Assembly: GCA_900554855.1 (NCBI GenBank)
Contig: USIZ01000001.1
Location: 1 to 38,764, forward strand
Length of the DNA stretch: 38,764 bases
Reading direction: 5' to 3'
Source: an uncultured Eubacteriales bacterium
GTDB lineage: Bacteria; Bacillota; Clostridia; Oscillospirales; Oscillospiraceae
This document shows, piece by piece, positions 8,772 to 27,493 of the stretch (positions within the stretch are counted from its first letter, which is position 1; the number at the start of each line of letters is the position of its first letter). The translations under genes were made by a program, and so were the position numbers. The notes beneath the pieces are model-generated. The model was given only the letters and a program-made list of their open reading frames with translations, searched no databases and was not told the DNA's origin.

Positions 8772-9135
8772 CAGCGAGATTACTCAGACCTATTCCGACG
8801 GACTGGTCAAGGTCTATGCCGTTGCAGATACGGCGGCGCCGGGCTACAAGCCTGTGGAGGGTTTGACATTTAAGGCCGCTTTGCGATACGAGGAGCGGCG
8901 TCTTGGCATCCAGCGGTATTACGAGGGACGGCAGAATCAGGCTCAGATCGAGCGGGTGCTGCGGGTTCCACGGGTCCCCGGCGTGAGCAGCCAGGACGTG
9001 GCTGTGACGGAGGACGGCAAGCAGTACCGCATCGATCTGATCCAGACAACAACCGACGTTTTCCCGGAAAGCATGGATCTGACGCTGCTGCGGATTGAGC
9101 AGAAATACGAGGTGCCACATGACCACCTGGTATGA
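8737..9135 (+). CDS. Head closure / head-tail adaptor protein
   Basis: Position and size fit. Overlaps its neighbours. Confidence 0.65.
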   Translation: MPWKAPYRPRRDSEITQTYSDGLVKVYAVADTAAPGYKPVEGLTFKAALRYEERRLGIQRYYEGRQNQAQIERVLRVPRVPGVSSQDVAVTEDGKQYRIDLIQTTTDVFPESMDLTLLRIEQKYEVPHDHLV

Positions 9136-18577: not shown

Positions 18578-18802
18578 ATGACGGAGACGATAATCTGCGC
18601 CCTCATCACAGGGGGGCTGACGCTGATGGGCGTGCTCATCGCCAACGGCAAACAGCAGGCGATCACGGACACCAAACTGGACGAGCTGACCCGCGAGGTG
18701 CGGGAGCACAACAACTTTGCCCAGCGGGTGCCGGTGATCGAGGAACAGATTAAAGTAATCAATCACAGGATTCAGGATCTGGAGCATGTGAGCGACCGAT
18801 GA
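18578..18802 (+). CDS. Membrane protein, N-terminal TM plus coiled coil (lysis-associated/holin candidate)
   Basis: AAGGAG SD. TM segment IICALITGGLTLMGVLIA. Confidence 0.55.
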   Translation: MTETIICALITGGLTLMGVLIANGKQQAITDTKLDELTREVREHNNFAQRVPVIEEQIKVINHRIQDLEHVSDR

Positions 18803-18813
18803 AAGGAGGAGAC

Positions 18814-19005
18814 ATGGAAAACATCAAGAAACGGCTGGGGAATCTGCTTGCGGTGAAGTCTCTGGTGACCATCACCCTGACGGTGGTGTTCGCGGTGCTG
18901 GCCCTGCGGGAGAGCATCAGCGGCAGCGAGTTTTTGACCATCTTCACGGTGGTCATCGGGTTCTATTTCGGGACCCAGCGGGTAGCGGAGGACAAGAACA
19001 GTTGA
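18814..19005 (+). CDS. Holin candidate (two TM segments)
   Basis: GAAAGGAGGAG SD. 63 aa with two hydrophobic segments, upstream of the lysins. Confidence 0.65.
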   Translation: MENIKKRLGNLLAVKSLVTITLTVVFAVLALRESISGSEFLTIFTVVIGFYFGTQRVAEDKNS

Positions 19006-19048: not shown

Positions 19049-19372
19049 ATGGAAAAGAAGTTTGCTGACATTATCAATGAGGGCTGCAAGGCTGGCAAAA
19101 CCATCGAGGCCATCAACGCAGAGCTGAAGGAGGCCGGTGCCAACTTCCACCTGAATCCCGACGGCGGCGTGGCCAACTGGACCGAGGCGGAGATGGCCGA
19201 GGGCTTCCGGCCCGGTGCGCCTGCAGAGGACGTCAAGCACCTGCATGACTATATGCGGCGTGACCCCGCCAAGGCCAACACCGAGGAGGAGGTCTGGGTC
19301 CCGGAAGGCCATTACCGCATTACCTTTGACGAGGACGGCCACGCCACCAAGGCCGTGAGAATCAATGGTTGA
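19049..19372 (+). CDS. Hypothetical protein
   Basis: GAAAGGAG SD. No family recognised. Confidence 0.55.
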   Translation: MEKKFADIINEGCKAGKTIEAINAELKEAGANFHLNPDGGVANWTEAEMAEGFRPGAPAEDVKHLHDYMRRDPAKANTEEEVWVPEGHYRITFDEDGHATKAVRING

Positions 19373-20048
19373 TACGTTCGACTGCGCCCGTGCGCAGATC
19401 TACCACAACACCGCCAAGCTGACCCCGGCCCAGATCAAGGCCAAGACCGGCTGCACCCACATCATCAACGGCTATCTGTTCAACGGCAAGTTTCAGCCGG
19501 TGGGCTGGACGGTGATCGACGGCAAGGTCATCAGCCGGGACGCGTATCAGGACTGGGGCGTGTCCATTGGCAGTGACGGCAAACCGCAGATGCTGACGGA
19601 CCGGGGAGGATCTTTCCTCTCCGGCGTCCCGATCCTCAAGGGCGGGTCCAAGCTCTACCGGGGCCTGACCGCCGACGTGGCCCGGCCTGCTGCCCGGACG
19701 GCGGTGGGCTGGATGCCCAACGGCAAGGTATGCCTGTGGTGCGACAAGGCCAGCCTGACCCGTGAGCAGCTCCAAAACAAACTGCTGGGGCTGGGCGTGG
19801 TGGATGCCCTCATGCTGGACGGCGGCGGCTCCACCCAGGGTATTTTCCCCGGCGGGAAGGTGACCAGCTCCAGGAAGGTGCCTACGCTGCTGCTGTTTTG
19901 GGAGCGGTCGGCAATTAAGGCGGAAGATCAAGCCCTCGCATGGGGGAAGTCTCACGGCCTGCTGACGGACGCCAACGCCGGGGAGACCGTGACCCGCGCC
20001 GACATGGTTTGGGCGCTGTATCAGATCTGGGGGGATAACCATGGTTGA
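19365..20048 (+). CDS. Phosphodiester glycosidase (NAGPA/DUF2233-like) domain protein, putative lysin
   Basis: LMLDGGGSTQ motif and overall resemblance to the family. Located in the lysis cassette. Confidence 0.65.
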   Translation: MVDTFDCARAQIYHNTAKLTPAQIKAKTGCTHIINGYLFNGKFQPVGWTVIDGKVISRDAYQDWGVSIGSDGKPQMLTDRGGSFLSGVPILKGGSKLYRGLTADVARPAARTAVGWMPNGKVCLWCDKASLTREQLQNKLLGLGVVDALMLDGGGSTQGIFPGGKVTSSRKVPTLLLFWERSAIKAEDQALAWGKSHGLLTDANAGETVTRADMVWALYQIWGDNHG

Positions 20049-20442
20049 GATCCACGCTTACAGCAAAGCCGCCTCCGGGGGCAAGCAGCTCTCCGCGCAT
20101 TTCAAGGTGCGGGAGTTTGCGTGTGGAGACGGGTCTGACGCTGTTTTGGTGGCGCCCCGGCTGGTGATGGTGCTGGAGACCATTCGCGCCCACTTCGGCG
20201 CTCCGGTGGTCATCCACAGTGGCTACCGCACGCCGCAGTACAATGCCAAAGTGAACGGCGCGGCTCACAGCCAGCACTGCTATGGCATGGCGGCGGATAT
20301 TTCCGTCAGCGGCCAGAAACCGGAGACGGTGGCGGCCTTCGCCCGGACGCTGATGCCCGATTTGGGCGGCGTAGGCATCTACGCCAAGAAGGGCTTTACC
20401 CACATCGACGTGCGAGAGAAACGCTCCGACTGGACGGGCTAA
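20041..20442 (+). CDS. Peptidase M15A-type zinc metallopeptidase (endolysin)
   Basis: HSGYRTPQYN...HSQHCYGMAADI...HIDV motif. Confidence 0.8.
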   Translation: MVEIHAYSKAASGGKQLSAHFKVREFACGDGSDAVLVAPRLVMVLETIRAHFGAPVVIHSGYRTPQYNAKVNGAAHSQHCYGMAADISVSGQKPETVAAFARTLMPDLGGVGIYAKKGFTHIDVREKRSDWTG

Positions 20443-20517
20443 ACATCTGAAAGGAGGGCCAGAAGATGGCAACAACATCCACGCGGTTAATCCGCGCTCT
20501 GCAAGTCTGGATAACCC

Positions 20518-20754
20518 ATGGAAAAAACAAACCGAGAGATCCGGGCGCTGTTGTCATCCATGGCCCCGGCCCGAGCGGCGCAGGCCGTCCGGCTGGTAGG
20601 CTTGCCGCCTGACGAGGAAACGGCGGTGCTGGCGGTGGATGTCCACGGCCAAAGCTGCCTACAGGCGGCGGCGCTGCTCCACGTCAGCGTGGACGGGTTG
20701 GCCAAGATCCGGCGGCGCGCCTACGCCAAAATCGCGGATGATATGCAGGGATAA
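20518..20754 (+). CDS. Small sigma-70 region-4-like HTH protein (possible late regulator); 5' end uncertain
   Basis: CLQAAALLHVSVDGLAKIRRRAYAKI HTH. No SD before ATG 20518. A strong SD plus ATG sits at 20466 in another frame. Confidence 0.6.
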   Translation: MEKTNREIRALLSSMAPARAAQAVRLVGLPPDEETAVLAVDVHGQSCLQAAALLHVSVDGLAKIRRRAYAKIADDMQG

Positions 20755-20760
20755 AGAAAA

Positions 20761-20783
20761 GCCGTGTCCGAATCGGACACGGC
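20761..20783. terminator. Bidirectional terminator, 23-nt perfect palindrome
   Basis: GCCGTGTCCGAATCGGACACGGC flanked by an A-run and a T-run, between convergent genes. Confidence 0.85.
20766..20778. repeat. GTCCGAATCGGAC palindrome, copy 5
   Basis: Core of the bidirectional terminator. Confidence 0.95.
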
Positions 20784-20788
20784 TTTCC

Positions 20789-21409
20789 TTATTTTTTTCC
20801 CCGCTTTTTCTTGCGCTGCGCCATAAAATCCTTGTCCAAGCGGTTGACTGTGGTAGGTGCTTTTCGGGTCCCTTGTCTGATTTGGGTGCGCTCCTGATGC
20901 CATTTTATCCGGAGCCTGTCACACTCCTCAGAGCATGTGATTCGAGGGGTTCCGGGGGAAATCGGTTTTCCACAAATCACGCAGACTTTTTGACCTCTTC
21001 GCGGCTTCTGTGCCCGCAGCTCATAATAATTATTTTCCTCGTTCCATTTTTTGGATGCCTCGCGGTCCGCCTGACGATATGCTCCCGGGGCACAGTCTTT
21101 ACAGTACCGCTGGCGCGCCGAATTGACAATATACTCTTTCCCGCAGATCGTACAATGGTCAATACTGCCAAGAGGCCGGATTGTTCCGCTTTTGTGGCAT
21201 CGTGCAGCTGACTCTTTTTTGCGGATGGCCCGGCAATTAGGGCAGTACCAAGCCCGAGGGCCACCGTCAAAGATCGCACCACACTCGCGGCAAGTCCGTG
21301 GGCGTATGGTGGTAGATCTCTCTGCCGCAAAACACTCCGCACATACACGCTGCTCAACTTTGGTGGCGGGGAACAGCTTCCCGCATTTTATGCACGCCTT
21401 GAGCCGCAT
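20789..21409 (-). CDS. Multi-CxxC zinc-ribbon protein with basic tail
   Basis: 206 aa with at least 6 CxxC pairs and a KKKRGKK C-terminus. Confidence 0.65.
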   Translation of the reverse strand: MRLKACIKCGKLFPATKVEQRVCAECFAAERSTTIRPRTCRECGAIFDGGPRAWYCPNCRAIRKKESAARCHKSGTIRPLGSIDHCTICGKEYIVNSARQRYCKDCAPGAYRQADREASKKWNEENNYYELRAQKPRRGQKVCVICGKPISPGTPRITCSEECDRLRIKWHQERTQIRQGTRKAPTTVNRLDKDFMAQRKKKRGKK

Positions 21410-21412
21410 ATT

Positions 21413-21751
21413 TTAGCCCCGCGTGTATAGCCCTACGGCTTGCGCCAGCAAAATCCGCAAATAGTCCGGGCAAGCGCTTGCCCCAGATTCCCAATTCTCC
21501 ACCGTCCGGCGCGGGATACAGAAGCGCTGGGCAAAAGCAACCTGAGACAAGCCAGTGGCTGCTCTGATCTCGCGGATCGTAATATGAGCCACATCCCACA
21601 ACGCTCCCAAAGACTGGATCCGATCATCCGGGATGTCAGCGCCTTCCGGATCTCCCCAGATGTCAGATAGCGCCCAGTCTGATACATACATGTCCCGGTC
21701 TTGGTCGGCAAGTGCACCGAAAAAGAGGGTGCTGAACTGCTTGTCAGTCAT
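21413..21751 (-). CDS. XRE-family HTH regulator (C-terminal HTH)
   Basis: IREIRAATGLSQVAFAQRFCIPRRTVENWESG. Confidence 0.8.
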   Translation of the reverse strand: MTDKQFSTLFFGALADQDRDMYVSDWALSDIWGDPEGADIPDDRIQSLGALWDVAHITIREIRAATGLSQVAFAQRFCIPRRTVENWESGASACPDYLRILLAQAVGLYTRG

Positions 21752-21763
21752 GGTATATCCTCC

Positions 21764-22036
21764 TTAATTCAGTTCATCAACAAAGACAACCATATCTTCG
21801 TCAGGGACAAGGACTCCGTCCTCGTCATATTTGATGCAAGCGCCATCTTCGCAGGTGCTGTTGTTGGCCATTTCGATGCAATAATCAACATCCTCAACGG
21901 TATAAGTATCAGTTTCCTCATCATAGGGCAGGGAACCGGCGGTAAAATAATCGCGGCTCCAGTCCGGATCGTATCCGGAACCATTCCAGCGCTGGATCTT
22001 GATCTCTACGGTTTTCTTTCCATCAGTAATTTTCAT
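21764..22036 (-). CDS. Small highly acidic protein (90 aa)
   Basis: AGGAGG SD. By hand count, 23 Asp/Glu versus 7 Lys/Arg. First gene of the minus-strand operon. Confidence 0.7.
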   Translation of the reverse strand: MKITDGKKTVEIKIQRWNGSGYDPDWSRDYFTAGSLPYDEETDTYTVEDVDYCIEMANNSTCEDGACIKYDEDGVLVPDEDMVVFVDELN

Positions 22037-22075
22037 TTTATTTTCCTCCTGGGCTTTGCCCCTCTTGTTGTTATT

Positions 22076-22104
22076 ATAATACCACCAATTTAGTGGTATG
22101 TCAA
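22076..22104 (-). promoter_or_regulatory. Promoter TTGACA-17-TATTAT with an inverted-repeat operator in the spacer
   Basis: Reverse complement of 22099-22104 is TTGACA and of 22076-22081 is TATTAT. ATACCAC-N7-GTGGTAT spans 22078-22098. Confidence 0.7.
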
Positions 22105-22137
22105 GAGGAAAAAGCAAAAAATACAAAATATTTTTTG

Positions 22138-22178
22138 GGCAGTTTGAGGGCAGAATACAGGCAGTTTCCGGGCAGTTT
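22138..22178 (+). promoter_or_regulatory. Four GGCAG(T/A)(T/A)T boxes phased at exactly 11 bp
   Basis: Boxes start at 22138, 22149, 22160 and 22171, upstream of the cargo operon. Confidence 0.7.
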
Positions 22179-22226
22179 GGCTGTCCGGATTTTTTGTATC
22201 ATATACGTGTAAAGGAGGCGCACACA

Positions 22227-22364
22227 ATGTACGAGCGGCTTTTGGCCTGCGGGTATCCGGCAGAGATGGCGCGAGAGATCATAGCGCGGACCGACCCGGC
22301 GGAGCTGGAACGATACGTGCGCATGATTGAGCTTTTATACGATGACCGGAGGGAATATGTATAA
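22227..22364 (+). CDS. Small helical protein (45 aa), cargo gene 1
   Basis: AAAGGAGG SD. Confidence 0.55.
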   Translation: MYERLLACGYPAEMAREIIARTDPAELERYVRMIELLYDDRREYV

Positions 22365-22737
22365 CCATTTCAACCCCAACCCCTGCGGGAAAAATGTGGG
22401 GGATTGCACCGTGCGGGCAATCGTAAAGGCTACCGGCAAGGATTGGGGCGAAATTTATTTGCGGCTCTGTATCCAAGGGTATCTGGATGGGGATATGCCG
22501 TCGGCAAACGCTTGTTGGGGGAGGTATCTCCGCAGCATCGGATATCGGCGGTATATCGTGCCGGACACTTGCCCAGACTGCTACACGGTTGGGCAATTTG
22601 CGGAGGATCACCCAAAAGGCACCTATATTCTGGCGCTGTCCGGTCATGTGGTCTGCGTCTGCGACGGCATGATCTGGGACAGCTGGGACAGCAGCAATGA
22701 GAACATCTTGTATTACTGGGTCAAGGAGGATGACTAA
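22357..22737 (+). CDS. Putative papain-like Cys/His peptidase-fold protein, cargo gene 2
   Basis: GDCTVRAI (Cys) and SGHVVCV (His) motifs. ATG at 22357 overlaps the upstream stop. Confidence 0.55.
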   Translation: MYNHFNPNPCGKNVGDCTVRAIVKATGKDWGEIYLRLCIQGYLDGDMPSANACWGRYLRSIGYRRYIVPDTCPDCYTVGQFAEDHPKGTYILALSGHVVCVCDGMIWDSWDSSNENILYYWVKEDD

Positions 22738-22738
22738 A

Positions 22739-23185
22739 ATGGCTTACACACCTTACGGATGGCAAAATCCCTATTACGCACCGCCTATGCCGGATAACCT
22801 CATGCAGATGCGCCAGCAGCAGATGCAGCCCATGACGCCCCAGATGCCGCAGGCTCCGCAAAACCCGGTGGCGCAGAGCGGCGTCCAGTGGGTAGCCGGT
22901 GAGAAAGAAGCCCGCAACTGGATGATCGCGCCTAACGCCGCCGTGGCGTTGTGGGACAGCACGGCCCCAACGGTATATCTCAAGCAGGCGGACGCCAGCG
23001 GCAAACCGTCCCTTAAAATTTATGACCTCGTAGAGCGCTCTCAGACGCCGCCTGCCGCACCGCAGGCTAAGGCCGTGGATTTTGTCACGCGGGAGGAGTT
23101 TGACCGTCTGGCGGCGATTGTGGGCGAAATTCGGGGCAAAGAAAAGCCCGCGAAGAAAGTAAAGGAGGCTGACGCTGATGGCTAA
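22739..23185 (+). CDS. Q/P/M-rich N-terminus plus small beta domain protein, cargo gene 3
   Basis: AAGGAGGA SD. Starts 2 nt after the upstream stop. Confidence 0.6.
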   Translation: MAYTPYGWQNPYYAPPMPDNLMQMRQQQMQPMTPQMPQAPQNPVAQSGVQWVAGEKEARNWMIAPNAAVALWDSTAPTVYLKQADASGKPSLKIYDLVERSQTPPAAPQAKAVDFVTREEFDRLAAIVGEIRGKEKPAKKVKEADADG

Positions 23186-23396
23186 TCCTTTTTTTAAGGC
23201 CATGGGCGGCGGTCAGATGCCGGGGCCGATGGGCCAATTCCAGCGGCTCATGCAGCAATTTAACCAGTTCCGCGCCACGTTTCAGGGCGATCCAAAAGCG
23301 GAGGTGGAAAAGCTGCTGCAATCCGGCAAAATGAGCCAGCAGCAGTTAAACCAGCTGCAAGAAATGGCAAAGCAATTTGAGAGCTTTTTGCGGTAA
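23178..23396 (+). CDS. Small Q-rich helical protein, cargo gene 4
   Basis: ATG overlaps the upstream stop. Confidence 0.6.
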   Translation: MANPFFKAMGGGQMPGPMGQFQRLMQQFNQFRATFQGDPKAEVEKLLQSGKMSQQQLNQLQEMAKQFESFLR

Positions 23397-23447
23397 TCAA
23401 AATCGTGGCCACGATTTGATTGATAAAATTTTGAAAGGAGAGATATT

Positions 23448-24170
23448 ATGTCTCTATCTGACGGTATGCCGACGATGACCATGCCTGTGGCTCCCGCCAA
23501 CACCTCCGGCAGCGGAAACGGCTTTGGCTGGGGCGGTGACGGTGCATGGTGGATCATTATCCTGTTTTTGTTTGTTTTTTGCGGCTGGGGCGGCAACGGC
23601 TGGGGCAACAACGGCGGCAATGGCGGCGGCGTGGTCGACGGCTATGTGCTGACCTCTGACTTTGCCAATGTCGAGCGCAAGATCGACAGTGTAAATCAGG
23701 GCCTTTGCGACGGATTTTACCAGCAGGCGCAGCTTGTCAACGGCACCAACATGGCGATGGCAAACGGCTTTGCACAGGCCGAGCTTTCCCGCAGCAACCA
23801 GCAGGCGGCTCTCATGCAGCAGTTGACTGCCATGCAGATGCAGGCCCAGCAGTGCTGCTGCGACCAGCGGGCCGACACGGCACAGCTCCGGTATGACATG
23901 GCTACGCAGGGCTGCGACACCCGCAACACCATCCAGACCGCAACGCGGGACATCATCGACAACGCCAACAGCAACAGCCGCGCGATCCTCGATTTCCTGA
24001 CCCAGAGCAAGCTGCAGGATCTCCAGAGCGAGAACCAGGGTTTGAAGCTGGCCGCATCTCAGGCGGCACAGAACAGCTATCTGGTGTCTCAGCTCCGTCC
24101 TTCTCCCATCCCGGCCTACACGGTGCAGAATCCCTATTGCTGCAACCAGTTTGCCGGATGCGGTTGCTGA
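23448..24170 (+). CDS. Membrane-anchored G/W/N-rich, Q-rich coiled-coil protein with Cys clusters, cargo gene 5
   Basis: GAAAGGAGAG SD. TM segment AWWIIILFLFVFCGW. QQCCCDQ and C-terminal YCCNQFAGCGC. Confidence 0.7.
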   Translation: MSLSDGMPTMTMPVAPANTSGSGNGFGWGGDGAWWIIILFLFVFCGWGGNGWGNNGGNGGGVVDGYVLTSDFANVERKIDSVNQGLCDGFYQQAQLVNGTNMAMANGFAQAELSRSNQQAALMQQLTAMQMQAQQCCCDQRADTAQLRYDMATQGCDTRNTIQTATRDIIDNANSNSRAILDFLTQSKLQDLQSENQGLKLAASQAAQNSYLVSQLRPSPIPAYTVQNPYCCNQFAGCGC

Positions 24171-24238
24171 CAACTGCATAGCGTAGCTTTTTCGTGATCT
24201 CACGAAAATGTTCGGCCCCATGCCGATACTAAACCAAA

Positions 24239-24269
24239 GCGGCGGGGCAATAGCCCTGCCGCTGATTTT
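24239..24269 (+). terminator. Hairpin plus weak U-tract (terminator/attenuator)
   Basis: GCGGCGGGG-caatag-CCCTGCCGC followed by TGATTTT. Confidence 0.45.
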
Positions 24270-24285
24270 ATGAAAGGAGTTTTTT

Positions 24286-24711
24286 ATGCCTGAATACACT
24301 GCTGTTGCCGCGCAAACTGTAGCGGCAAACCAGAACGTGCTTTTTACCGAGGCACCGATCCCTTGCACCAAGGGCCTTGTGACGCACCGCGCAGGCTCCG
24401 GCCTGCTTAACCTCCGTGGTAACTGTTCTCAGTGCCGCGTCCGCTATAAAGTGGACTTTATCGGCAATATTGCCGTAAGCACCGGCGGAACCCCCGGCCC
24501 CATCTCCGTTGCCATTGCGGTTGACGGTGAGCCGCTCCCGTCCTCCGTTGCGACGGTGACGCCCGCAGCGGCGGGGGCATTTTTTAACGTGGCTGCATCC
24601 GAGTACGTTGACGTTACAAAGGGCTGCTGCGCGTCGCTGTCTATCCGCAACGTTAGTGGCGAGGACATTGACGTGAGAAACGCGAACCTTATCATTACCA
24701 GAGTTTGCTGA
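24286..24711 (+). CDS. C1q/TNF-like (BclA C-terminal-domain-like) beta-jelly-roll protein, cargo gene 6
   Basis: GAAAGGAG SD. 141 aa with an alternating beta-strand pattern. The fold assignment is from memory of the family and is not verified. Confidence 0.6.
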   Translation: MPEYTAVAAQTVAANQNVLFTEAPIPCTKGLVTHRAGSGLLNLRGNCSQCRVRYKVDFIGNIAVSTGGTPGPISVAIAVDGEPLPSSVATVTPAAAGAFFNVAASEYVDVTKGCCASLSIRNVSGEDIDVRNANLIITRVC

Positions 24712-24725
24712 GAAAGGAGAACACA

Positions 24726-25091
24726 ATGGGAATGAAATCTATGTATGAACTGCGGGATATGCTCTGCAAAGAGCTTGATGAACTGATCCGCAAGGGCGAA
24801 CTGGGTGCCGGTGATCTGGATATCGCTCACAAGCTGACGGACACCATCAAAAACATCGACAAGATCGAGGCGATGGACGAGCGCGGCTATTCCGGGCGCT
24901 ATCTGGACGATGATCTGCGTGGCTACAGCCGTGGCAGCTCCTATGCCCGTCGGCATTACGTCCGAGGCCATTACAGCCGCGACGACGGCCGGGAGGCCAT
25001 GCGCCGTCAGCTTCGGGATATGCTGGACGATGCCGATGATGATACCATTCGTAGCGCGATCCAGCGCTGCATGGACGCCGTGGAGGGATAA
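24726..25091 (+). CDS. Charged helical protein with RGYS/RxHY repeats, cargo gene 7
   Basis: GAAAGGAG SD then ATG at 24726. Confidence 0.6.
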   Translation: MGMKSMYELRDMLCKELDELIRKGELGAGDLDIAHKLTDTIKNIDKIEAMDERGYSGRYLDDDLRGYSRGSSYARRHYVRGHYSRDDGREAMRRQLRDMLDDADDDTIRSAIQRCMDAVEG

Positions 25092-25105
25092 GGGGGTGCG
25101 GCCCC

Positions 25106-25603
25106 ATGATCGATGAGCAGGAGTTGTCCTTGTGGATCAAACGGCTGGAGGCTGAGCCGTCCAGTTGGAAAAACTATGAGCGGTTGTCGATCCTTTACGC
25201 GATCCGATCTCAGCTCAACCTTACCGCATCGGCGGAAAAAACTTTGACCAGACGGGACATGCTACTCCGCTGGAAAATGGATTTTACCAAGGCAGAAGCG
25301 GAAAAATGGGCGGCGGGGTTGGAAAACTCTGACGGCACCACTGGCCCGCACTGGCCTATTGAGCAGACCAGCGCTTTGGCGGACAGCATGGGGATCTCTC
25401 CAGAGCAGGTACCCCCGTGGTGCTGGTGGATCACCGTAAATATGATGTACGCCGACTACAGCGAGGTAGCGCTGCACTATGGGATCAAGACCGTTGGCTT
25501 TTTTGGCGAGATGGCGCAAGCATTTTTGTTTGACAAAGACGGTCCTGGTTTTCGGGACAAGCTGGCTGCCTACTATTTCGGTATCGTCCAAGCGGGAAAG
25601 TAG
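25106..25603 (+). CDS. Hypothetical Trp-rich protein, cargo gene 8
   Basis: AAGGGGGTG SD. DGTTGPHWPIEQT...MMYADYSEVA motif. Confidence 0.6.
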   Translation: MIDEQELSLWIKRLEAEPSSWKNYERLSILYAIRSQLNLTASAEKTLTRRDMLLRWKMDFTKAEAEKWAAGLENSDGTTGPHWPIEQTSALADSMGISPEQVPPWCWWITVNMMYADYSEVALHYGIKTVGFFGEMAQAFLFDKDGPGFRDKLAAYYFGIVQAGK

Positions 25604-25610
25604 GGCCGAC

Positions 25611-25630
25611 TGTGTTCGGAACTGTGTTCA
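25611..25630 (+). repeat. Two TGTGTTC(G/A) boxes (putative integrase arm-type sites, P arm)
   Basis: Copies at 25611-25618 and 25623-25630. Confidence 0.55.
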
Positions 25631-25684
25631 CACATCCCCTTATAACCGTTTCTATCCGGCTCTAACAGCCAGTTAAAAACAGCG

Positions 25685-25731
25685 AAAAACCGTTGAAATT
25701 GCAAGCATTACAAGCAATTCCAACGGTTTTT
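25685..25731. terminator. Bidirectional rho-independent terminator
   Basis: 13-bp stem (1 mismatch), 11-nt loop, A5 upstream and T5 downstream. Confidence 0.8.
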
Positions 25732-25735
25732 CATT

Positions 25736-25762
25736 TGGCGCGGAAGGAGGGATTTGAACCCT
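25736..25762 (-). other. attP core: 3' terminal 27 nt of a tRNA gene (T-arm, acceptor 3' strand, CCA)
   Basis: Minus strand reads AGGG-TTCAAAT-CCCTC-CTTCCGC-G-CCA. The upstream tRNA parts are absent. Confidence 0.7.
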
Positions 25763-25798
25763 ATTCTTTCTGACTGTTTTCAACAGCCTGCGGGTTTC

Positions 25799-25837
25799 TG
25801 TGTTCAAAACTGTGTTCAGCCGGAAAATATGTGTTCA
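25799..25837 (+). repeat. Three TGTGTTCA boxes (putative arm-type sites, P' arm)
   Basis: Copies at 25799-25806, 25811-25818 and 25830-25837. Confidence 0.55.
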
Positions 25838-26869
25838 GAAGCCTTTCTCCATCTTTTCCGCAGCGGCCTTCAGCTGGCCGTCCCGGACGTGGGTGTAGAT
25901 GTCCATGGTGGTGGACAGCTGGGCGTGGCCAAGGAGCACCTGCGCCGTTTTAGGATCCACGCCGCTTTCCAGCAGGGCGGTGGCGTAGCCGTGGCGGATC
26001 TGGTGCGCCGTGACGGTGACGCCGCTGGCATCCCGGTAGGCATCGTACAGCGAGGTAAAGTGATCGTTTGTCAGGAGGCTGCCGTCCGGCTCCGCGAACA
26101 GGTAGCCTTTCCCCAGCTTTTTGGGGAGCAGCTTAGCCAGCGCCGGAAGAAGCGGAACGTCCCGGCATCCGGCGTCAGACTTCGGCTGCTTGATGTGGGG
26201 CGAGTTGCCTACATGATACACGGATTTTTTGATGTGCACAAGATTTTTCTTTCGGTCGATGTCGGCGCCGGTGAGGGCCAGCGCCTCACCACGGCGGCAG
26301 CCGGTGTAATAAACGAGGAAGGCGAACAGGCCGAAGGGGAGGCCTGCGCCTTTTTTTATGAGTTCAATCTGCTCCGGAGGGGGCGCGTCCCGGTGGGTCT
26401 GCGTCAGATTCCGGGGCGGCTTCACGGCGCTGGCCGGGTTGTAGCTTATAACGCCATCCACTTCGGCTTTGCGGAAGATCTGGCGGATGATCTGCAACTG
26501 GGTCACCACGGTTTTCCGGGCGCGGGTGGCGGCGAAGTCCTTGATATACTGGTCGATCTCCTTCGCGGTGATCTCGCCGGGTGCCCTCCCGGCAAATTCC
26601 GTCTTGGCCCGGGCCAGCGCCGGACGGTAGCTTTTTTGGGTATTGTGCTCTAAGGTCGGTTCGATCTCCGACCACCATGCGTCTGCGATTTTCTCAAATA
26701 CGGCGGCTTTTTCCGTTTCGATGCGGTCCGCCTCCCGGTCAAAGGCCTTGACCTTCTCCCAGACCTCTTTGTCGGTCTTCCCCCGGAAGGCCTTACGCTT
26801 GCCGTTGATCCGGAGGATGGTCTCGTGGAGGCCGTCAGGCCGGACGTAGTATTTCGGGTATCTTGCCAT
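25835..26869 (-). CDS. int: Tyrosine-type site-specific integrase
   Basis: R (CRRGEAL), HxxR (HQIRHGYAT) and Y (MDIYTH). Adjacent to attP. Confidence 0.9.
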   Translation of the reverse strand: MARYPKYYVRPDGLHETILRINGKRKAFRGKTDKEVWEKVKAFDREADRIETEKAAVFEKIADAWWSEIEPTLEHNTQKSYRPALARAKTEFAGRAPGEITAKEIDQYIKDFAATRARKTVVTQLQIIRQIFRKAEVDGVISYNPASAVKPPRNLTQTHRDAPPPEQIELIKKGAGLPFGLFAFLVYYTGCRRGEALALTGADIDRKKNLVHIKKSVYHVGNSPHIKQPKSDAGCRDVPLLPALAKLLPKKLGKGYLFAEPDGSLLTNDHFTSLYDAYRDASGVTVTAHQIRHGYATALLESGVDPKTAQVLLGHAQLSTTMDIYTHVRDGQLKAAAEKMEKGF

Positions 26870-26872
26870 GGG

Positions 26873-27286
26873 TTACTCCCGCCAGAAGCCGATCTGGACG
26901 CAATGGAAGTCCAGATACAGCGCATACATGGCAACCAGACACAGGAGCACCAGCAGAGCGGCAATAATCCGGTTCCGGATGCGGACGCCCTGCTCCATCA
27001 TCGTAATGATCTGCCGTTTATTGGACAAGCGCTTTTCAAGGCCGACTTTTTCAGCCTGCAAGGTTTCTTCGGTGGCTGTATAGTGATCCCCGATGTCAAA
27101 AAACTCATCTATGGAAATCCCCAGGACAGCGCAGATCGGCCCTGCGGTATTGATGGACGGCGCTTTTGACGCATTTGCAAAAAAGTTGTTGACGGTAGAC
27201 AGCGGCACACCCGATTTGTCCGCGATGTCTTGAGCCGTCATGTGCAATGCGGCTTTTTTATCTCTGCATAAGTCTTGAATCGTCAA
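26873..27286 (-). CDS. XRE-family HTH protein with C-terminal transmembrane anchor
   Basis: IQDLCRDKKAALHMTAQDIADKSGVPLSTVNNFF HTH. TM segment IIAALLVLLCLVAMYALYL. Start is uncertain: TTG 27286 or ATG 27241. Confidence 0.6.
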   Translation of the reverse strand: MTIQDLCRDKKAALHMTAQDIADKSGVPLSTVNNFFANASKAPSINTAGPICAVLGISIDEFFDIGDHYTATEETLQAEKVGLEKRLSNKRQIITMMEQGVRIRNRIIAALLVLLCLVAMYALYLDFHCVQIGFWRE

Positions 27287-27311
27287 AAAATCACCATCCT
27301 GTGTCAAATTT

Positions 27312-27402
27312 CCCAATATGGGCAGATAAAGTCTCAAATTCGATCCGGCAGTATATTGCCCATTTCCCCAATTTGGGCATTGCGCTGCCCAGCCCATTTG
27401 GG
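27312..27402. promoter_or_regulatory. Cluster of CCCA-N2-3-TGGG palindromic boxes plus GGGCA-N6-TGCCC
   Basis: CCCAATATGGG at 27312-27322, CCCAATTTGGG at 27367-27377, CCCATTTGGG at 27393-27402, and an inverted repeat at 27375-27390. All lie upstream of the minus-strand HTH gene. Confidence 0.45.
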
Positions 27403-27493
27403 GTACGGTTTTCTTGCGGACAGGCAGACGCCCCCTCTGCCGGAAACGCAAAGTGCCCCCGCCGCTTGTTGCAGAGGCGATGGGGGCACTTAC

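Follow-up and report, generated by a model that had tools for sequence, protein, structure and literature searches.

The eight-gene block at positions 22227–25603 of a 38,764-nt stretch of DNA from an uncultured Eubacteriales bacterium (the window, by which we mean the whole stretch analyzed) is, with good support, a copy of an accessory operon that is self-contained and moves horizontally among gut phages. Thousands of these phages carry the cassette, ranging from prophages of Clostridia to crAss-like phages, so it is not just lysogeny-specific cargo. It is larger than the unit of eight genes (P1 to P8) delimited by a first-pass annotation made from the sequence alone: An upstream regulator (Sig), an array of GGGCAG boxes, and an internal structured RNA belong to it as well. 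It is well supported that the recurrent core consists of P5 (phrog_16490) and a DUF7841 protein, which an R/Y/D-rich sequence accompanies as partner or tail (P7, P8), and that the Clostridia versions add Sig, P2, P3, P4, P6, and the structured RNA between P5 and P6.

We checked the reading frames and found eight co-directional open reading frames (ORFs) at this site, all on the plus strand and each with a GGAGG-type Shine-Dalgarno sequence 6–9 nt 5′ of its start. P1 and P2 overlap (22357 vs. 22364), as do P3 and P4 (23178 vs. 23185), and a 1-nt gap separates the P2 stop (22737) from the P3 start (22739); ORFs, Shine-Dalgarno sites, overlaps, and both flanking signals lie where the first-pass annotation had put them. 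Six of the eight proteins (P2–P7) match PHROG families (E 6e-10 to 1e-50), and every one of P1–P8, the 45-aa P1 included, has homologs elsewhere with the gene order kept, collinear across dozens of loci. Because of these PHROG matches, a Pfam match of P8, and the collinear homologs, P1–P8 are genuine genes rather than chance ORFs. The order Sig-(P1)-P2-P3-P4-P5-(P6 or other Cys-rich beta protein)-P7-(P8alt or DUF7841) is kept in 55 non-redundant P5 loci from Oscillospiraceae, Lachnospiraceae, Anaerotruncus, Lawsonibacter, Butyricicoccus, and Solobacterium. Similar proteins do recur in gut Clostridia prophages, as the first-pass annotation had it, and their synteny is strongly conserved.

P1 (22227–22364), an ORF with a Shine-Dalgarno site that encodes a 45-aa helical peptide, is an optional member of the cassette: Homologs occupy the same position in loci L001, L018, and L023, inspection of L008 by eye showed a P1-like ORF, and an ERYV motif is common to P1 and its homologs. 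P2 (22357–22737; 126 aa; phrog_3754, E = 8e-34) is a predicted Cys-His-Asp hydrolase with 1753 homolog clusters, in which D16, C17, C75, H97, and D108 are invariant and a CPDC motif is also conserved. In its AF2 model (pLDDT 93), Cys17 lies at the N-terminus of a helix and His97 and Asp108 lie on neighboring strands, a predicted arrangement typical of papain-like enzymes; Foldseek returned no significant PDB match, the weak top ones being papain-like enzymes. P3 (22739–23185; 148 aa; phrog_21718, E = 3e-31) starts with a Q/P/M-rich stretch, contains a small beta domain, and ends in a helix. Its position never varies among 27 homologs, and it matched no PDB profile. P4 (23178–23396), a 72-aa Q-rich helical protein (phrog_22984, E = 9e-21), has 21 distinct homologous sequences and is found at the P4 position in 20 of the 55 P5 loci.

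The signature protein of the cassette is P5 (23448–24170; 240 aa; phrog_16490, E = 3e-45), which has more than 8000 homolog clusters at 90% identity. Its short N-terminus, net acidic in all six lineages examined, leads into a hydrophobic segment (residues 33–49) with Gly and Trp on its flanks; a long helical region, rich in Q and bearing an invariant CCC motif, comes next, and the C-terminal tail is rich in Cys. By hydropathy and charge analysis, P5 alone among the eight has a strongly hydrophobic segment, and no signal peptides were found in the other seven. Full-length homologs occur in Crassvirales, a Bacteroides phage, C. perfringens phages, and viruses assigned to Methanomassiliicoccales.

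P6 (24286–24711; phrog_20016, E = 1e-50) is a 141-aa stand-alone TNF-like jelly roll in which Cys114 and Cys115 are invariant and Cys27 and Cys50 nearly so. A Foldseek search of the PDB with its AF2 model (pLDDT 92.4) matched BxpB (8d02), ExsF (9h3d), the F-BclA CTD (9h38), and the BclA CTD (1wck), with E from 5e-7 to 3e-5 and TM of 0.67–0.75; the modeled fold is the BxpB/ExsF/BclA-CTD jelly roll. No sequence-level relationship to BclA or ExsF was detected, and P6 has neither an exosporium-targeting N-terminus nor collagen-like repeats. Stand-alone gut-phage proteins of this fold are present in BFVD (TM 0.76–0.87), some under the name "BclA protein." The family has 961 representative clusters, nearly all of ~140 aa, and the top 150 representatives include no fusions (e.g., to fiber shafts). 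P6-type folds are common as knobs of viral fibers, an observation that counts against a cell-directed reading of the cassette. The earlier protein descriptions hold, P6 being a jelly roll at the fold level, P2 papain-like at the motif level, and P5 alone membrane-like.

P7 (24726–25091; 121 aa; phrog_28802, E = 6e-10) is helical at both ends, with a middle rich in R, Y, S, and D, and 25 homologs occupy the P7 position. Homologs give no support to an upstream TTG (24705) as its start. P8 (25106–25603; 165 aa) matches Pfam DUF7841 (E = 2.5e-16) over residues 57–157, and its residues 1–50 resemble an alternative last gene, P8alt; P8 appears to be a hybrid of a P8alt-like part and DUF7841. The DUF7841 domain of crAss-like phages carries a fused R/Y/D-rich tail, and in other loci the N-terminal helical part of P7 is apparently fused to DUF7841 (read by eye). 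Next to P5, crAss-like phages and a Bacteroides phage encode DUF7841 proteins (E = 8.6e-43 and 5e-16, respectively). Among 72 IMG/VR loci sampled through DUF7841, 65 have an ORF with the P5 architecture ≤1.8 kb upstream of it, the background rate being 4.6% per ORF.

Folding and a covariance model revealed a three-hairpin RNA between P5 and P6 (24171–24288, plus strand; folding z-score −4.84), which matched no Rfam family. With the covariance model, 25 loci gave a single copy each, which in 24 of them lies just 3′ of P5. In the alignment 88.6% of cells are paired, compared with 37–50% in slid controls, and compensatory changes occur in 19 of 24 pairs, a level reached by none of 500 shuffles. 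The element is on this evidence a conserved, covariation-supported RNA. Its third hairpin (24238–24263), with a U-run, resembles a terminator, and the Shine-Dalgarno sequence and start codon of P6 follow directly; we regard the RNA as a candidate attenuator or 3′-UTR RNA.

Upstream, Sig (20518–20754, plus strand) is a 78-aa sigma-70-region-4-like HTH protein whose match to Pfam Sigma70_r4_2 (E = 1.3e-4, 22 bits) is under the 25.7-bit cut-off. It is the last gene after the lysins, at the end of the late/lysis operon, and in this phage a 1.4-kb reverse-strand insert parts it from the remaining cassette. A hairpin after Sig (20758–20786; an inverted repeat with a 13-bp stem, then a T-run) closes that operon, facing the convergent reverse-strand genes. 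Small Sig homologs lie directly 5′ of the cassette in 22 of the 55 P5 loci and in most of the IMG/VR loci sampled through DUF7841. Sig is likely a regulator of the cassette, and its position only suggests a tie to the GGGCAG repeats (22137–22175, plus strand), a candidate operator/activator array. The four copies start at 22137, 22148, 22159, and 22170 with an exact 11-bp spacing, more regular than the repeat-bearing region first described. The fourth falls inside a hairpin (22167–22189) followed by a T-run and a −10-like TATCAT (22197–22202) 25 nt before the P1 start codon; the plus-strand interval 22167–22202 is a terminator-like element fused to a promoter-like element. The same order of hairpin, T-run, and −10-like hexamer, often with a TG extension, recurs in at least 10 other loci, and in several other loci three phased direct repeats of different sequence precede the first cassette gene. 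A plus-strand promoter scan upstream of P1 called no sigma-70 promoter.

At the downstream end, a bidirectional intrinsic terminator (25684–25732) closes the cassette, an inverted repeat (19-nt arms, 95% complementarity) preceded by an A-run and followed by a T-run. Read on the minus strand, positions 25736–25764 look like the 3′ end of a tRNA, with T-arm, acceptor strand, and CCA; this is the probable attP core and the cassette boundary. CTGTGTTC repeats at 25610–25630 and 25798–25838 flank this core, the integrase gene lies beyond it (25835–26869, minus strand), and no complete tRNA gene was found in the window. The strong terminator reported just before attP is thereby borne out, as is the moron slot in this phage, between the lysis genes and attP. 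The cassette's own signals comprise the upstream repeats, hairpin, and −10-like box, the internal covarying RNA, and this terminal element.

The cassette is accessory: The window already has a full canonical head, tail, and lysis gene set, and PhiCrAss001 lacks the cassette that its relative cr116_1 carries. Nothing lies between endolysin gp30 and gp31 (the gene just 5′ of the MCP gene) in PhiCrAss001, whereas in cr116_1 the cassette occupies this spot, just 5′ of the gp31-like gene preceding the MCP gene. The cassette does not differ in base composition from the rest of the phage.

The positions of related cassettes are varied, and it is well supported that they enter permissive junctions: the interval from lysis genes to attP, the junction of minor capsid and scaffold genes, or, in crAss-like phages, a site next to the lysis genes. 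In ~45 related loci, lysins and holins dominate the three ORFs just 5′, while integrases, serine recombinases, or host genes lie just 3′; in L003, which is integrated, the cassette ends the prophage and host genes follow it. Dulem virus 35 and three further loci have it inside the head-gene block, between minor capsid and scaffold genes, and the Dulem virus 35 cassette holds a small TM protein and a coiled-coil protein, XhlA-like by eye, that has a TM segment at its C-terminal end. All four Crassvirales loci examined (cr116_1, cr52_1, cr4_1, and cr273_1, spanning three subfamilies) have it adjoining lysis genes, with different genes on its other side. Bacteroides phage C3_41T2LP carries it among replication and recombination genes. 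In Crassvirales and a Bacteroides phage, P5 and DUF7841 are neighbors, and integrase-less C. perfringens phages and methanogen-assigned viruses have P5 alone; CPD1 and XP41-N3 have the cassette with no integrase near it. Beyond P5 and DUF7841, no homology was detected between the crAss-like and Clostridia versions. In some phages homing endonucleases are inserted inside the cassette.

The neighborhood and family checks agree with the first-pass annotation in that synteny is conserved and no clear match to a family of known function appears; nor did the proteins match known defense systems. Our searches found no experimental work on these families, and no homology links the cassette proteins to lysis, exclusion, or membranes. 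Our best guess, a tentative one, is a P5-based membrane-anchored complex acting at lysis, release, or exclusion; on this reading it would belong neither to the virion nor to the surface factors specific to lysogeny. A link to lysis is proposed because lysins and holins dominate the upstream ORFs, all four crAss loci adjoin lysis genes, and the Dulem virus 35 cassette includes the XhlA-like coiled-coil protein and the small TM protein. However, the lysis cassette of a temperate siphophage always abuts attP, so lysis adjacency is confounded with a preference for the moron slot, and the unconfounded cases are few (the four crAss-like loci and one siphophage). The placement in C3_41T2LP counts against the lysis link. 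The canonical holin and two lysins already encoded in the window count against a lysis role.

We consider it doubtful that the cassette encodes an accessory virion decoration, with a P5 coiled-coil stalk and a knob of P6 or the alternative Cys-rich beta protein forming dispensable head/neck fibers or another late particle-bound structure, P2 as maturation protease, and the low-complexity proteins as assembly aids. The minor capsid/scaffold placement in four loci suits a virion role equally well, and the position just 5′ of the gp31-like gene in cr116_1 also favors it. Depositors label crAss-like P5 homologs "viral fiber," "outer capsid," or "spike," but they state no basis (coiled-coil resemblance is a guess), and no PDB profile matched P5 to back the "fiber" and "spike" labels. 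The P6 fold is found at BclA filament tips and on many viral fibers, yet the 150 best representatives include no fusion to a fiber shaft. No partner of P5 has a secretion signal, which implies assembly in the cytoplasm, where virions form, and the cassette lies downstream of the late operon in the same direction; against this, it has its own regulator, promoter-like region, terminators, and RNA instead of being embedded in a structural operon, and P5 carries a strongly hydrophobic, membrane-like segment. Moreover, P5 and DUF7841 occur in HK97-type siphophages and crAss-type podophages, and P5 in archaeal viruses, for which a shared docking site is hard to imagine.

Rather unlikely, in our view, is a lysogenic-conversion moron, that is, a cross-linked surface structure expressed from the prophage or an exclusion/defense module aiding the lysogen, much as first proposed. 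The classical lysis/attP slot, the terminal position in L003, the integrases, recombinases, or host genes downstream in most loci, and the cassette's own promoter-like region and terminators all speak for it. Superinfection-exclusion proteins are usually membrane proteins with a large soluble domain, a format that P5 fits. However, the cassette is not specific to lysogeny, for it is also present in CPD1 and XP41-N3, in Crassvirales, and in siphophage head-gene blocks. An envelope- or spore-surface cross-linked assembly is unlikely because only one of the eight proteins, P5, has a membrane or secretion signal with which to reach the envelope, and because the core occurs in phages of non-sporulating Bacteroidota and P5 in archaea-assigned viruses. 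No PADLOC model matched, which counts against a novel defense module. The regulator gene ends the late/lysis operon and so points to expression in lytic growth, and the phage-like base composition likewise argues against a moron.

A module directed at the spore of spore-forming Clostridia, one that would furnish coat or exosporium with a transglutaminase- or protease-like enzyme and with proteins that are BxpB/BclA-like or rich in Cys, Q, or Tyr, perhaps to carry or protect the phage genome, seems very improbable. In its favor, every one of the closest structural matches to P6 (BxpB/ExsFA, ExsF, and the BclA CTD) belongs to the exosporium, and Clostridia account for many of the host taxa. Cys-rich, Q-rich, and R/Y/S-rich proteins with a papain-fold enzyme also resemble coat and exosporium make-up, whose proteins likewise need no signal peptide, being put together in the cytoplasm. 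Yet the Bacteroidota and archaeal hosts of the core and of P5 make no spores, P6 lacks the sequence relationship, targeting N-terminus, and repeats noted above, the Ena/DUF3992 family gave no match, and no sporulation-type promoter or regulator is evident. We give equally little credence to unrelated small morons having accumulated at one permissive site without joint function, for although there are non-homologous swaps after P5 (P6 or CPD1_040-type) and at the 3′ end (P8alt or DUF7841), inserted homing endonucleases, and little homology between crAss-like and Clostridia versions, collinearity is strict across dozens of divergent loci in three different genomic positions, start and stop codons are translationally coupled, regulator, leader layout, and internal RNA are shared, an R/Y/D-rich tail and (by eye) a P7-like N-terminus are fused to DUF7841, and the P5–DUF7841 pairing is maintained across phyla.

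In the membrane-anchored complex that we tentatively prefer, Sig, made from the tail end of the late/lysis operon, would act on the 11-bp-phased boxes and turn the cassette promoter on, and the three-hairpin RNA, with its terminator-like stem, would lower or gate expression of P6–P8 relative to P1–P5. P5 would enter the cytoplasmic membrane via its Gly/Trp-flanked segment, its N-terminus probably facing outward and its C-terminus inward, and is predicted to oligomerize through its long helical domain. Cytoplasmic partners (a P6 trimer, P3 and P4, the R/Y-rich P7, and the DUF7841 protein P8) would assemble on it, one of them processed by the P2 hydrolase. Near lysis, the complex would act on the membrane of the infected cell, where it may tune or complete lysis and release or may block secondary infection. 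A cell-directed role is proposed because the cassette is exchanged across unlike virion and envelope types: Its exchange among siphophages, crAss-type podophages, and archaeal viruses suggests that it relies on no one virion architecture or envelope type.

The eight genes lie on a complete-looking genome of a temperate HK97-type siphophage, which encodes terminase, portal, ClpP-type prohead protease, major head protein, and tape measure within the window and whose structural and lysis gene set is complete without counting the cassette. A small transmembrane (TM) protein gene and a two-TM holin-type gene (18578-19005, the holin-type gene at 18799-19005) precede an NAGPA-type and an M15 lysin (19365-20442). 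On the far side stand a tyrosine integrase (25835-26869) and a repressor-like XRE-type HTH gene (26873-27451), both on the minus strand. Between lysins and integrase, the eight co-directional ORFs (22227-25603, plus strand; products P1 to P8) are as the first-pass annotation had drawn them, and their overlaps, spacings, and Shine-Dalgarno sites agree as well; for P7, the ATG at 24726 is the start, as it is in the homologues. The strong bidirectional terminator placed downstream of them is an inverted repeat (25684-25732) with 19-nt arms, flanked by an A-run and a T-run, and a probable attP lies after it, as expected. The sequence at 25736-25764, TGGCGCGGAAGGAGGGATTTGAACCCTAT, is a tRNA 3′ end in reverse complement, CCA included, and CTGTGTTC repeats lie on both sides of it; there is no complete tRNA gene in the window, and the combination fits an attP site. 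Within the probable attP region (25610-25838), repeats of the type CTGTGTTC(R)RAACTGTGTTCA occur at 25610-25630, 25798-25818, and 25825-25838, and could be arm sites for the integrase.

The absence of any canonical phage function among the eight products, proposed from the sequence at the outset, is upheld: six of the eight fall in PHROG families of unknown function (E 6e-10 to 1e-50), P8 carries the Pfam domain DUF7841 (residues 57-157; 60.4 bits against a cut-off of 25.2, E 2.5e-16), and NCBIfam and PADLOC scans of all eight proteins made no informative addition. The suspected recurrence in phages of gut Clostridia is also confirmed, since the same gene order is present in Dulem virus 33, in three metagenomic P6 loci, and in 44 reference-genome loci, mostly of Oscillospiraceae but including Lachnospiraceae, Anaerotruncus colihominis, Lawsonibacter, Butyricicoccus, Muriventricola, Colidextribacter, and Solobacterium. 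Taking P5 (phrog_16490) as the signature protein of the cassette, we find the order collinear in all 55 non-redundant P5 loci: Sig-(P1)-P2-P3-P4-P5-(P6 or a different Cys-rich beta protein)-P7-(the ~110-aa P8alt or DUF7841), where Sig is a sigma-70-region-4-like protein and P8alt an alternative last gene. The eight genes are not the whole module, as had been supposed; the cassette is larger and also has the putative Sig-type regulator, a shared leader layout, and a structured RNA between P5 and P6. At 90% identity, homologues form 639 clusters for P6, 1753 for P2, and >8000 for P5. The P8 of the window is a hybrid, with a P8alt-like N-terminus followed by DUF7841, and in some IMG/VR loci a helical N-terminal domain that by eye resembles P7 is fused to DUF7841. 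Between P6 and the alternative Cys-rich beta proteins (CPD1_040-type), no homology is detectable.

Full-length P5 homologues are also found in many Crassvirales and in Bacteroides phage C3_41T2LP, in the C. perfringens phages CPD1 and XP41-N3 (with no integrase near either), and in viruses recorded with a Methanomassiliicoccales host. In the crAss-like phages cr52_1 and cr4_1, the gene for a DUF7841 protein (E 8.6e-43, with an R/Y/D-rich tail) lies directly upstream of P5, and the C3_41T2LP cluster also holds a DUF7841 gene. When IMG/VR loci were sampled from the DUF7841 side, 65 of 72 had an ORF of P5 architecture at most 1.8 kb upstream, against a background of 4.6% per ORF, or ~12% expected per locus. 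The other crAss-like cassette proteins are small and beta-rich, combine a small beta domain with a coiled coil, or carry an HExxH motif (the C3_41T2LP example is a PolyVal metallopeptidase according to its record annotation). They show no detectable homology to P3, P6, P2, or the CPD1_040-type proteins, so only P5 and DUF7841 are demonstrably common across phyla. The cassette is accessory, since the place where cr116_1 carries it is empty in the related PhiCrAss001, whose endolysin gene gp30 is followed directly by gp31, the gene preceding the MCP gene.

Several loci show further variation. Homing-type endonuclease genes sit inside the cassettes of Dulem virus 33 (L001, 8873-9424, minus strand; an annotated endonuclease), Clostridium phage CPD1 (L006, 5951-6601, plus strand; a Cys-rich HNH-like ORF), and cr52_1 (L057, 5886-6464, plus strand; an annotated HNH endonuclease); in Dulem virus 33 and CPD1, the insertion falls between the P4 and P5 homologues. 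Annotated genes of cr52_1, cr273_1 (L058), and cr4_1 (L059) contain in-frame stops under translation table 11, a pattern consistent with stop-codon reassignment, and the label "RNA polymerase sigma factor/ubiquitin-like protein" on the DUF7841 proteins of these three loci is unsupported by the Pfam result. A more divergent version of the cassette follows holin, amidase, and Sig genes in two IMG/VR loci (L087, 3929-5318; L097, 3718-5315). Here a glycine-zipper hydrophobic protein plus coiled coil, to which the L097 copy adds a CC motif and a Cys-rich tail, is followed by a protein of 112-129 aa and then by a DUF7841 protein with a P7-like helical N-terminus, which looks like a fusion joining P7-like and DUF7841 parts.

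In many loci, the sigma-70-region-4-like protein (66-86 aa) is encoded directly upstream of the cassette. Its window counterpart, the 78-aa Sig (20518-20754), comes directly after the lysins and aligns to Pfam Sigma70_r4_2 with 22.0 bits against a Pfam cut-off of 25.7, the CPD1 counterpart scoring 23.1 bits; a terminator follows at 20758-20786. No Shine-Dalgarno site precedes the ATG of Sig (20518), and an in-frame stop codon stands two codons (6 nt) ahead of it. In the same region (20452-20520), a strong AGGAGG leads into a 48-aa ORF that begins at 20466 in a different frame. A sequencing frameshift, a leader peptide, or an unusual mode of translation initiation could each account for this arrangement. 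Between Sig and P1 lies a three-gene insert on the minus strand (20789-22126), which has a strong sigma-70-like promoter (22104-22076); its products are a double zinc-ribbon protein of 206 aa, an XRE-type HTH protein of 112 aa, and one unknown protein. Loci such as L003-L005, which hold related cassettes, have no such insert, so that it resembles a small moron of its own, set into the moron site.

The repeat region that the first-pass annotation had seen upstream of P1 is real and more regular than described there, with four GGGCAG boxes starting at 22137, 22148, 22159, and 22170 (plus strand) at an exact 11-bp spacing. The last box is held in a leader hairpin (22167-22189), after which come a T-run and a -10-like TATCAT (22197-22202). 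The same layout recurs ahead of the first cassette gene across loci, with differing sequences: direct repeats, three or four of them and spaced by one helical turn, come first, then a GC-rich hairpin and a T-run, and finally a -10-like hexamer, often TG-extended, ~25 nt from the start codon. We see it at ~7860-7935 in L003 and upstream of the P2 homologue in four further loci (L014, L015, L017, and L042). Repeats in other leaders read GGCCGAA or CTGACAG/GGCAG, and the sequence of the repeats may change along with the Sig type. Scanning for the sigma-70 consensus gave no plus-strand promoter call ahead of P1. We read the leader as a putative promoter that depends on an activator and is joined to the terminator closing the operon before it; from gene position alone, Sig is the obvious candidate for the activator of this promoter.

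A conserved RNA of ~120 nt (24171-24288, plus strand) begins directly after the P5 stop codon and takes up the 115-nt P5-P6 spacer; its predicted fold has three hairpins and a z-score of -4.84. No Rfam family corresponds to it, the sole overlap being a chance-level match to SCARNA21 (E 8.7). With 19 loci as its seed, a covariance model detects a single copy in each of 25 Firmicutes-phage loci (five outside the seed); the copy is directly 3′ of P5 in 24 of them, and in the remaining locus (L048) it stands beside a reverse-strand P6-like gene. The RNA is absent from the crAss-like loci searched. In the alignment as fitted to the model, 88.6% of cells are paired, compared with 37-50% when the partners are slid, compensatory changes occur in 19 of the 24 pairs, and none of 500 shuffles matches the observed values. 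The third hairpin and its U-run have the look of an intrinsic terminator and abut the P6 Shine-Dalgarno site, so the RNA could attenuate or gate P6-P8; alternatively, it could be a 3′-UTR RNA. Two loci (L009 and L012, ~8850-9060) have an extra small ORF between the RNA element and the P6 homologue, which shows the RNA staying with the 3′ end of P5 and not with the 5′ end of P6. In the minimum free energy fold, a CAUA just past the P5 stop apparently pairs with the P6 start codon.

Among the cassette proteins, P5 alone has a strongly hydrophobic segment, with Gly and Trp on its flanks. The membrane-like segment, Q-rich helical region, CCC, and Cys-rich tail are all present as first described: A short N-terminus and the one hydrophobic segment lead into a long, Q-rich helical domain with conserved cysteines, within which the CCC motif is invariant, and the Cys-rich tail closes the protein. 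The N-terminus is net acidic in six lineages, which weakly suggests an N-out, C-in topology, and the charge distribution suggests that the large domain would face the cytoplasm. No signal peptide is found in any partner protein of P5. Among these partners, P3 and P4 are Q/M/P-rich, and P7 has an R/Y/S/D-rich middle between two helical ends. With its one TM-type segment and large Cys-bearing domain, P5 resembles lysis accessory membrane proteins (T4 holin T with its antiholin system, and i-spanins such as lambda Rz), and its gene adjoins holin and endolysin genes in several unrelated phage groups. However, it has no homology to T4 holin T or lambda Rz and no Pfam or PHROG holin match that would place it in a holin or spanin family. 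We reject P5 as the holin of this phage because the canonical two-TM holin-type gene is already present, and its occurrence in phages of monoderm and diderm bacteria and in archaea-assigned viruses means that it cannot be an outer-membrane spanin.

The proposal that P2 is papain-like stands at the level of motifs, C17, H97, and D108 being invariant in 33 sequences; a CPDC motif is also conserved. In the AF2 model (pLDDT 93), C17 opens helix 17-26 and the His and Asp sit on strands 98-102 and 105-108, so that the predicted Cys-His-Asp geometry is a papain-like arrangement. Foldseek against the PDB gives nothing significant (best E 0.2), the weak top matches being AvrPphB, Josephin-2, staphopain, deubiquitinases, and Tae4, and P2 has neither a Pfam nor a PDB profile match. 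We also considered P2 as a transglutaminase acting on the Q-rich P3, P4, and P5 and set the idea aside as no more than conceivable, the catalytic triad being the one feature that points that way. Profile searches of PDB sequences with P3, P5, DUF7841, and the alternative Cys-rich beta family likewise returned nothing, as did P6 at E up to 10.

For P6, the suggested C1q/TNF (BclA-CTD)-like jelly roll is supported by the AF2 model (pLDDT 92.4) and by Foldseek against the PDB, where the best solved structures are B. anthracis BxpB/ExsFA, ExsF, the F-BclA tip domain, and the BclA CTD (E 5e-7 to 3e-5, TM 0.67-0.75). P6 shares the TNF/C1q-like jelly-roll fold of BxpB/ExsFA, ExsF, and the BclA CTD (PDB 8d02, 7r5i, 9h3d, 9h38, and 1wck) and is about the size of the stand-alone BxpB (E 5e-7, TM 0.70-0.75). 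Its best matches in the viral structure library are stand-alone gut phage MAG proteins of ~140 aa, some of them named "BclA protein". At the sequence level, it matches no Pfam or NCBIfam family, and neither P6 nor the CPD1_040-type family matches Pfam DUF3992 (Ena endospore appendage). The beta-sandwich begins at residue 3, with no N-terminal exosporium-targeting region and no collagen-like GXX repeats, and a whole-library profile search found no domain fusion in the best 150 of 961 representative clusters, nearly all of them stand-alone and ~140 aa long. Cys27, Cys50, Cys114, and Cys115 are conserved in the family alignment. BxpB, ExsF, and BclA, like P6, have no signal peptide; they are assembled in the cytoplasm beside Cys-rich partner proteins. 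Unlike these exosporium proteins of the Bacillus cereus group, P6 is phage-encoded and without sequence-level homology to them; P5 and DUF7841, its partners in the cassette, are found in phages whose hosts do not sporulate, too.

A Pfam tally of the three ORFs ahead of the cassette at ~45 loci is dominated by lysis functions (PG_binding_1, Amidase_2, Amidase_3, CHAP, NlpC/P60, ELLD, lysozymes, and three holin families), with Phage_min_cap2 taking the place of lysis genes in four loci. Downstream we find integrases (seven), serine recombinases (two), host genes (MnmE, RuvABC, and PGI), and, in three loci, a scaffold protein. The usual site is thus between the lysis genes and att, the window included. 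A second site, seen for example in Dulem virus 35, has the minor capsid gene on one side and the scaffold gene on the other. In Crassvirales, the cassette adjoins lysis genes in all four loci examined, which represent three different subfamilies, and the genes on its other side vary; in C3_41T2LP it stands among replication genes. The cassette is found at three different junction types. Dulem virus 35 encodes two TM proteins between its P2 and Sig homologues (L007, 4934-5666), one of 93 aa and the other a coiled coil that ends in a TM segment and looks XhlA-like by eye. This places lysis-type membrane proteins inside a cassette that is itself in a head-gene block.

We compared the cassette with three further kinds of known system. 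With phage morons, defined from lambdoid phages such as HK97 as autonomous accessory transcription units at module junctions, it shares its location at junctions of conserved modules, its absence from a related phage, the promoter-like region and terminator that bracket it, and its place next to attP in temperate phages. It differs from them in having six to nine genes instead of one or two, its own regulator and an internal structured RNA, and a base composition that is not deviant (GC 0.53-0.57, compared with 0.54-0.63 in neighbouring late genes). The superinfection-exclusion proteins lactococcal Sie2009, T4 Imm and Sp, and TP-J34 Ltp are non-essential phage membrane proteins, often encoded near the attachment or lysogeny region, and such proteins are used by temperate and virulent phages alike. 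In contrast to single-protein exclusion, the cassette is a conserved multi-protein set with a putative enzyme, a jelly roll, low-complexity partners, and dedicated regulation, and no homology to Sie2009, Imm, Sp, or Ltp was detected. PVAP-type proteins (STIV c92 and SIRV2 P98) are small, membrane-anchored, self-assembling viral proteins that serve virion release and function in membranes from all domains of life; by analogy, membrane action of this kind would explain how the cassette crosses the boundary between bacteria and archaea. The cassette has no sequence or predicted-fold similarity to PVAP, which acts alone, and nothing here shows pyramid-like assemblies.

The cassette is a real, mobile, multi-gene accessory operon with its own signals; none of it matches families of known function or defence models, and its proteins are assigned at the fold level for P6 and at the motif level for P2. 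Because it spans very different virion and envelope types and all of its proteins but one are cytoplasmic, its products most likely form a complex at the cytoplasmic membrane of the infected cell, and the recurrent lysis-gene neighbourhood together with a regulator at the end of the lysis operon suggests action at or near lysis. Such a complex would act on lysis timing, completion, release, or exclusion. We offer this mechanism tentatively, as one that may quite well prove wrong; the adjacency to lysis genes is confounded with the moron slot in temperate phages. The proteins might instead decorate the virion, a role that the head-module position and the fibre-fold evidence keep in play but that we consider unlikely, given the spread over such different virions. 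The lysogenic-conversion or surface function of the first-pass annotation agrees with the place beside attP, and we regard it as distinctly doubtful: The cassette is also present in integrase-less and crAss-like phages and so would not be tied to prophage expression. We give very little credence to a spore-directed role, to which the exosporium-type fold of P6 would speak; a spore-coat or exosporium module was rejected because the core occurs in phages of non-sporulating hosts. It is just as improbable that unrelated morons merely share a site, with gene order collinear over so many loci. Among other candidates, we discarded a defence system (no PADLOC model match, the sole hit being P4 at a chance-level E of 0.014, and no nuclease or ATPase domain), an integrated small virus or satellite (no replication or capsid genes), and a RiPP or bacteriocin locus (no modification enzymes). 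The probability left over belongs to an explanation outside those considered.

A bolder and decidedly improbable proposal is that the P5 and DUF7841 cassette would be a host-independent system, so far unrecognised, that phages of Bacillota and of Bacteroidota (crAss-like phages among them) have in common with each other and, for at least P5, with gut-methanogen viruses. It would build a self-assembling, Cys-rich structure on the inner face of the membrane late in infection, as a universal device for egress, membrane remodelling, or particle encasing, controlled by a stand-alone sigma-region-4 protein and a new class of RNA attenuator.

We found no published paper on the protein families of the cassette (DUF7841 and the PHROGs) and nothing relevant in the literature on phage-encoded BclA or exosporium proteins, phage CPD1, or methanogen viruses; the families are catalogued solely as unknowns (PHROGs and one Pfam DUF). 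Since the unit, its regulator-operator layout, and its RNA motif match nothing in the libraries searched, the cassette lies outside known kinds of system, although it may later prove to perform an established function, for example lysis control or exclusion, with new parts. The crAss-like phages are described in the literature as the most abundant viruses of the human gut. P5, with its >8000 homologue clusters, is found in these phages too, yet it and its partners are without assigned function. The cassette offers a putative minimal sigma-region-4 protein with a candidate operator phased at 11 bp, a covariation-supported RNA motif outside Rfam, and phage proteins with the BxpB/BclA fold of the exosporium. 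If it is a device for lysis timing or exclusion, it would still be of a new and very common type. Its intact transfer among Clostridia siphophages, crAss-type phages of Bacteroides, and methanogen-assigned viruses points to a general, undescribed step in the life of phages, one that would be independent of virion architecture and envelope type.
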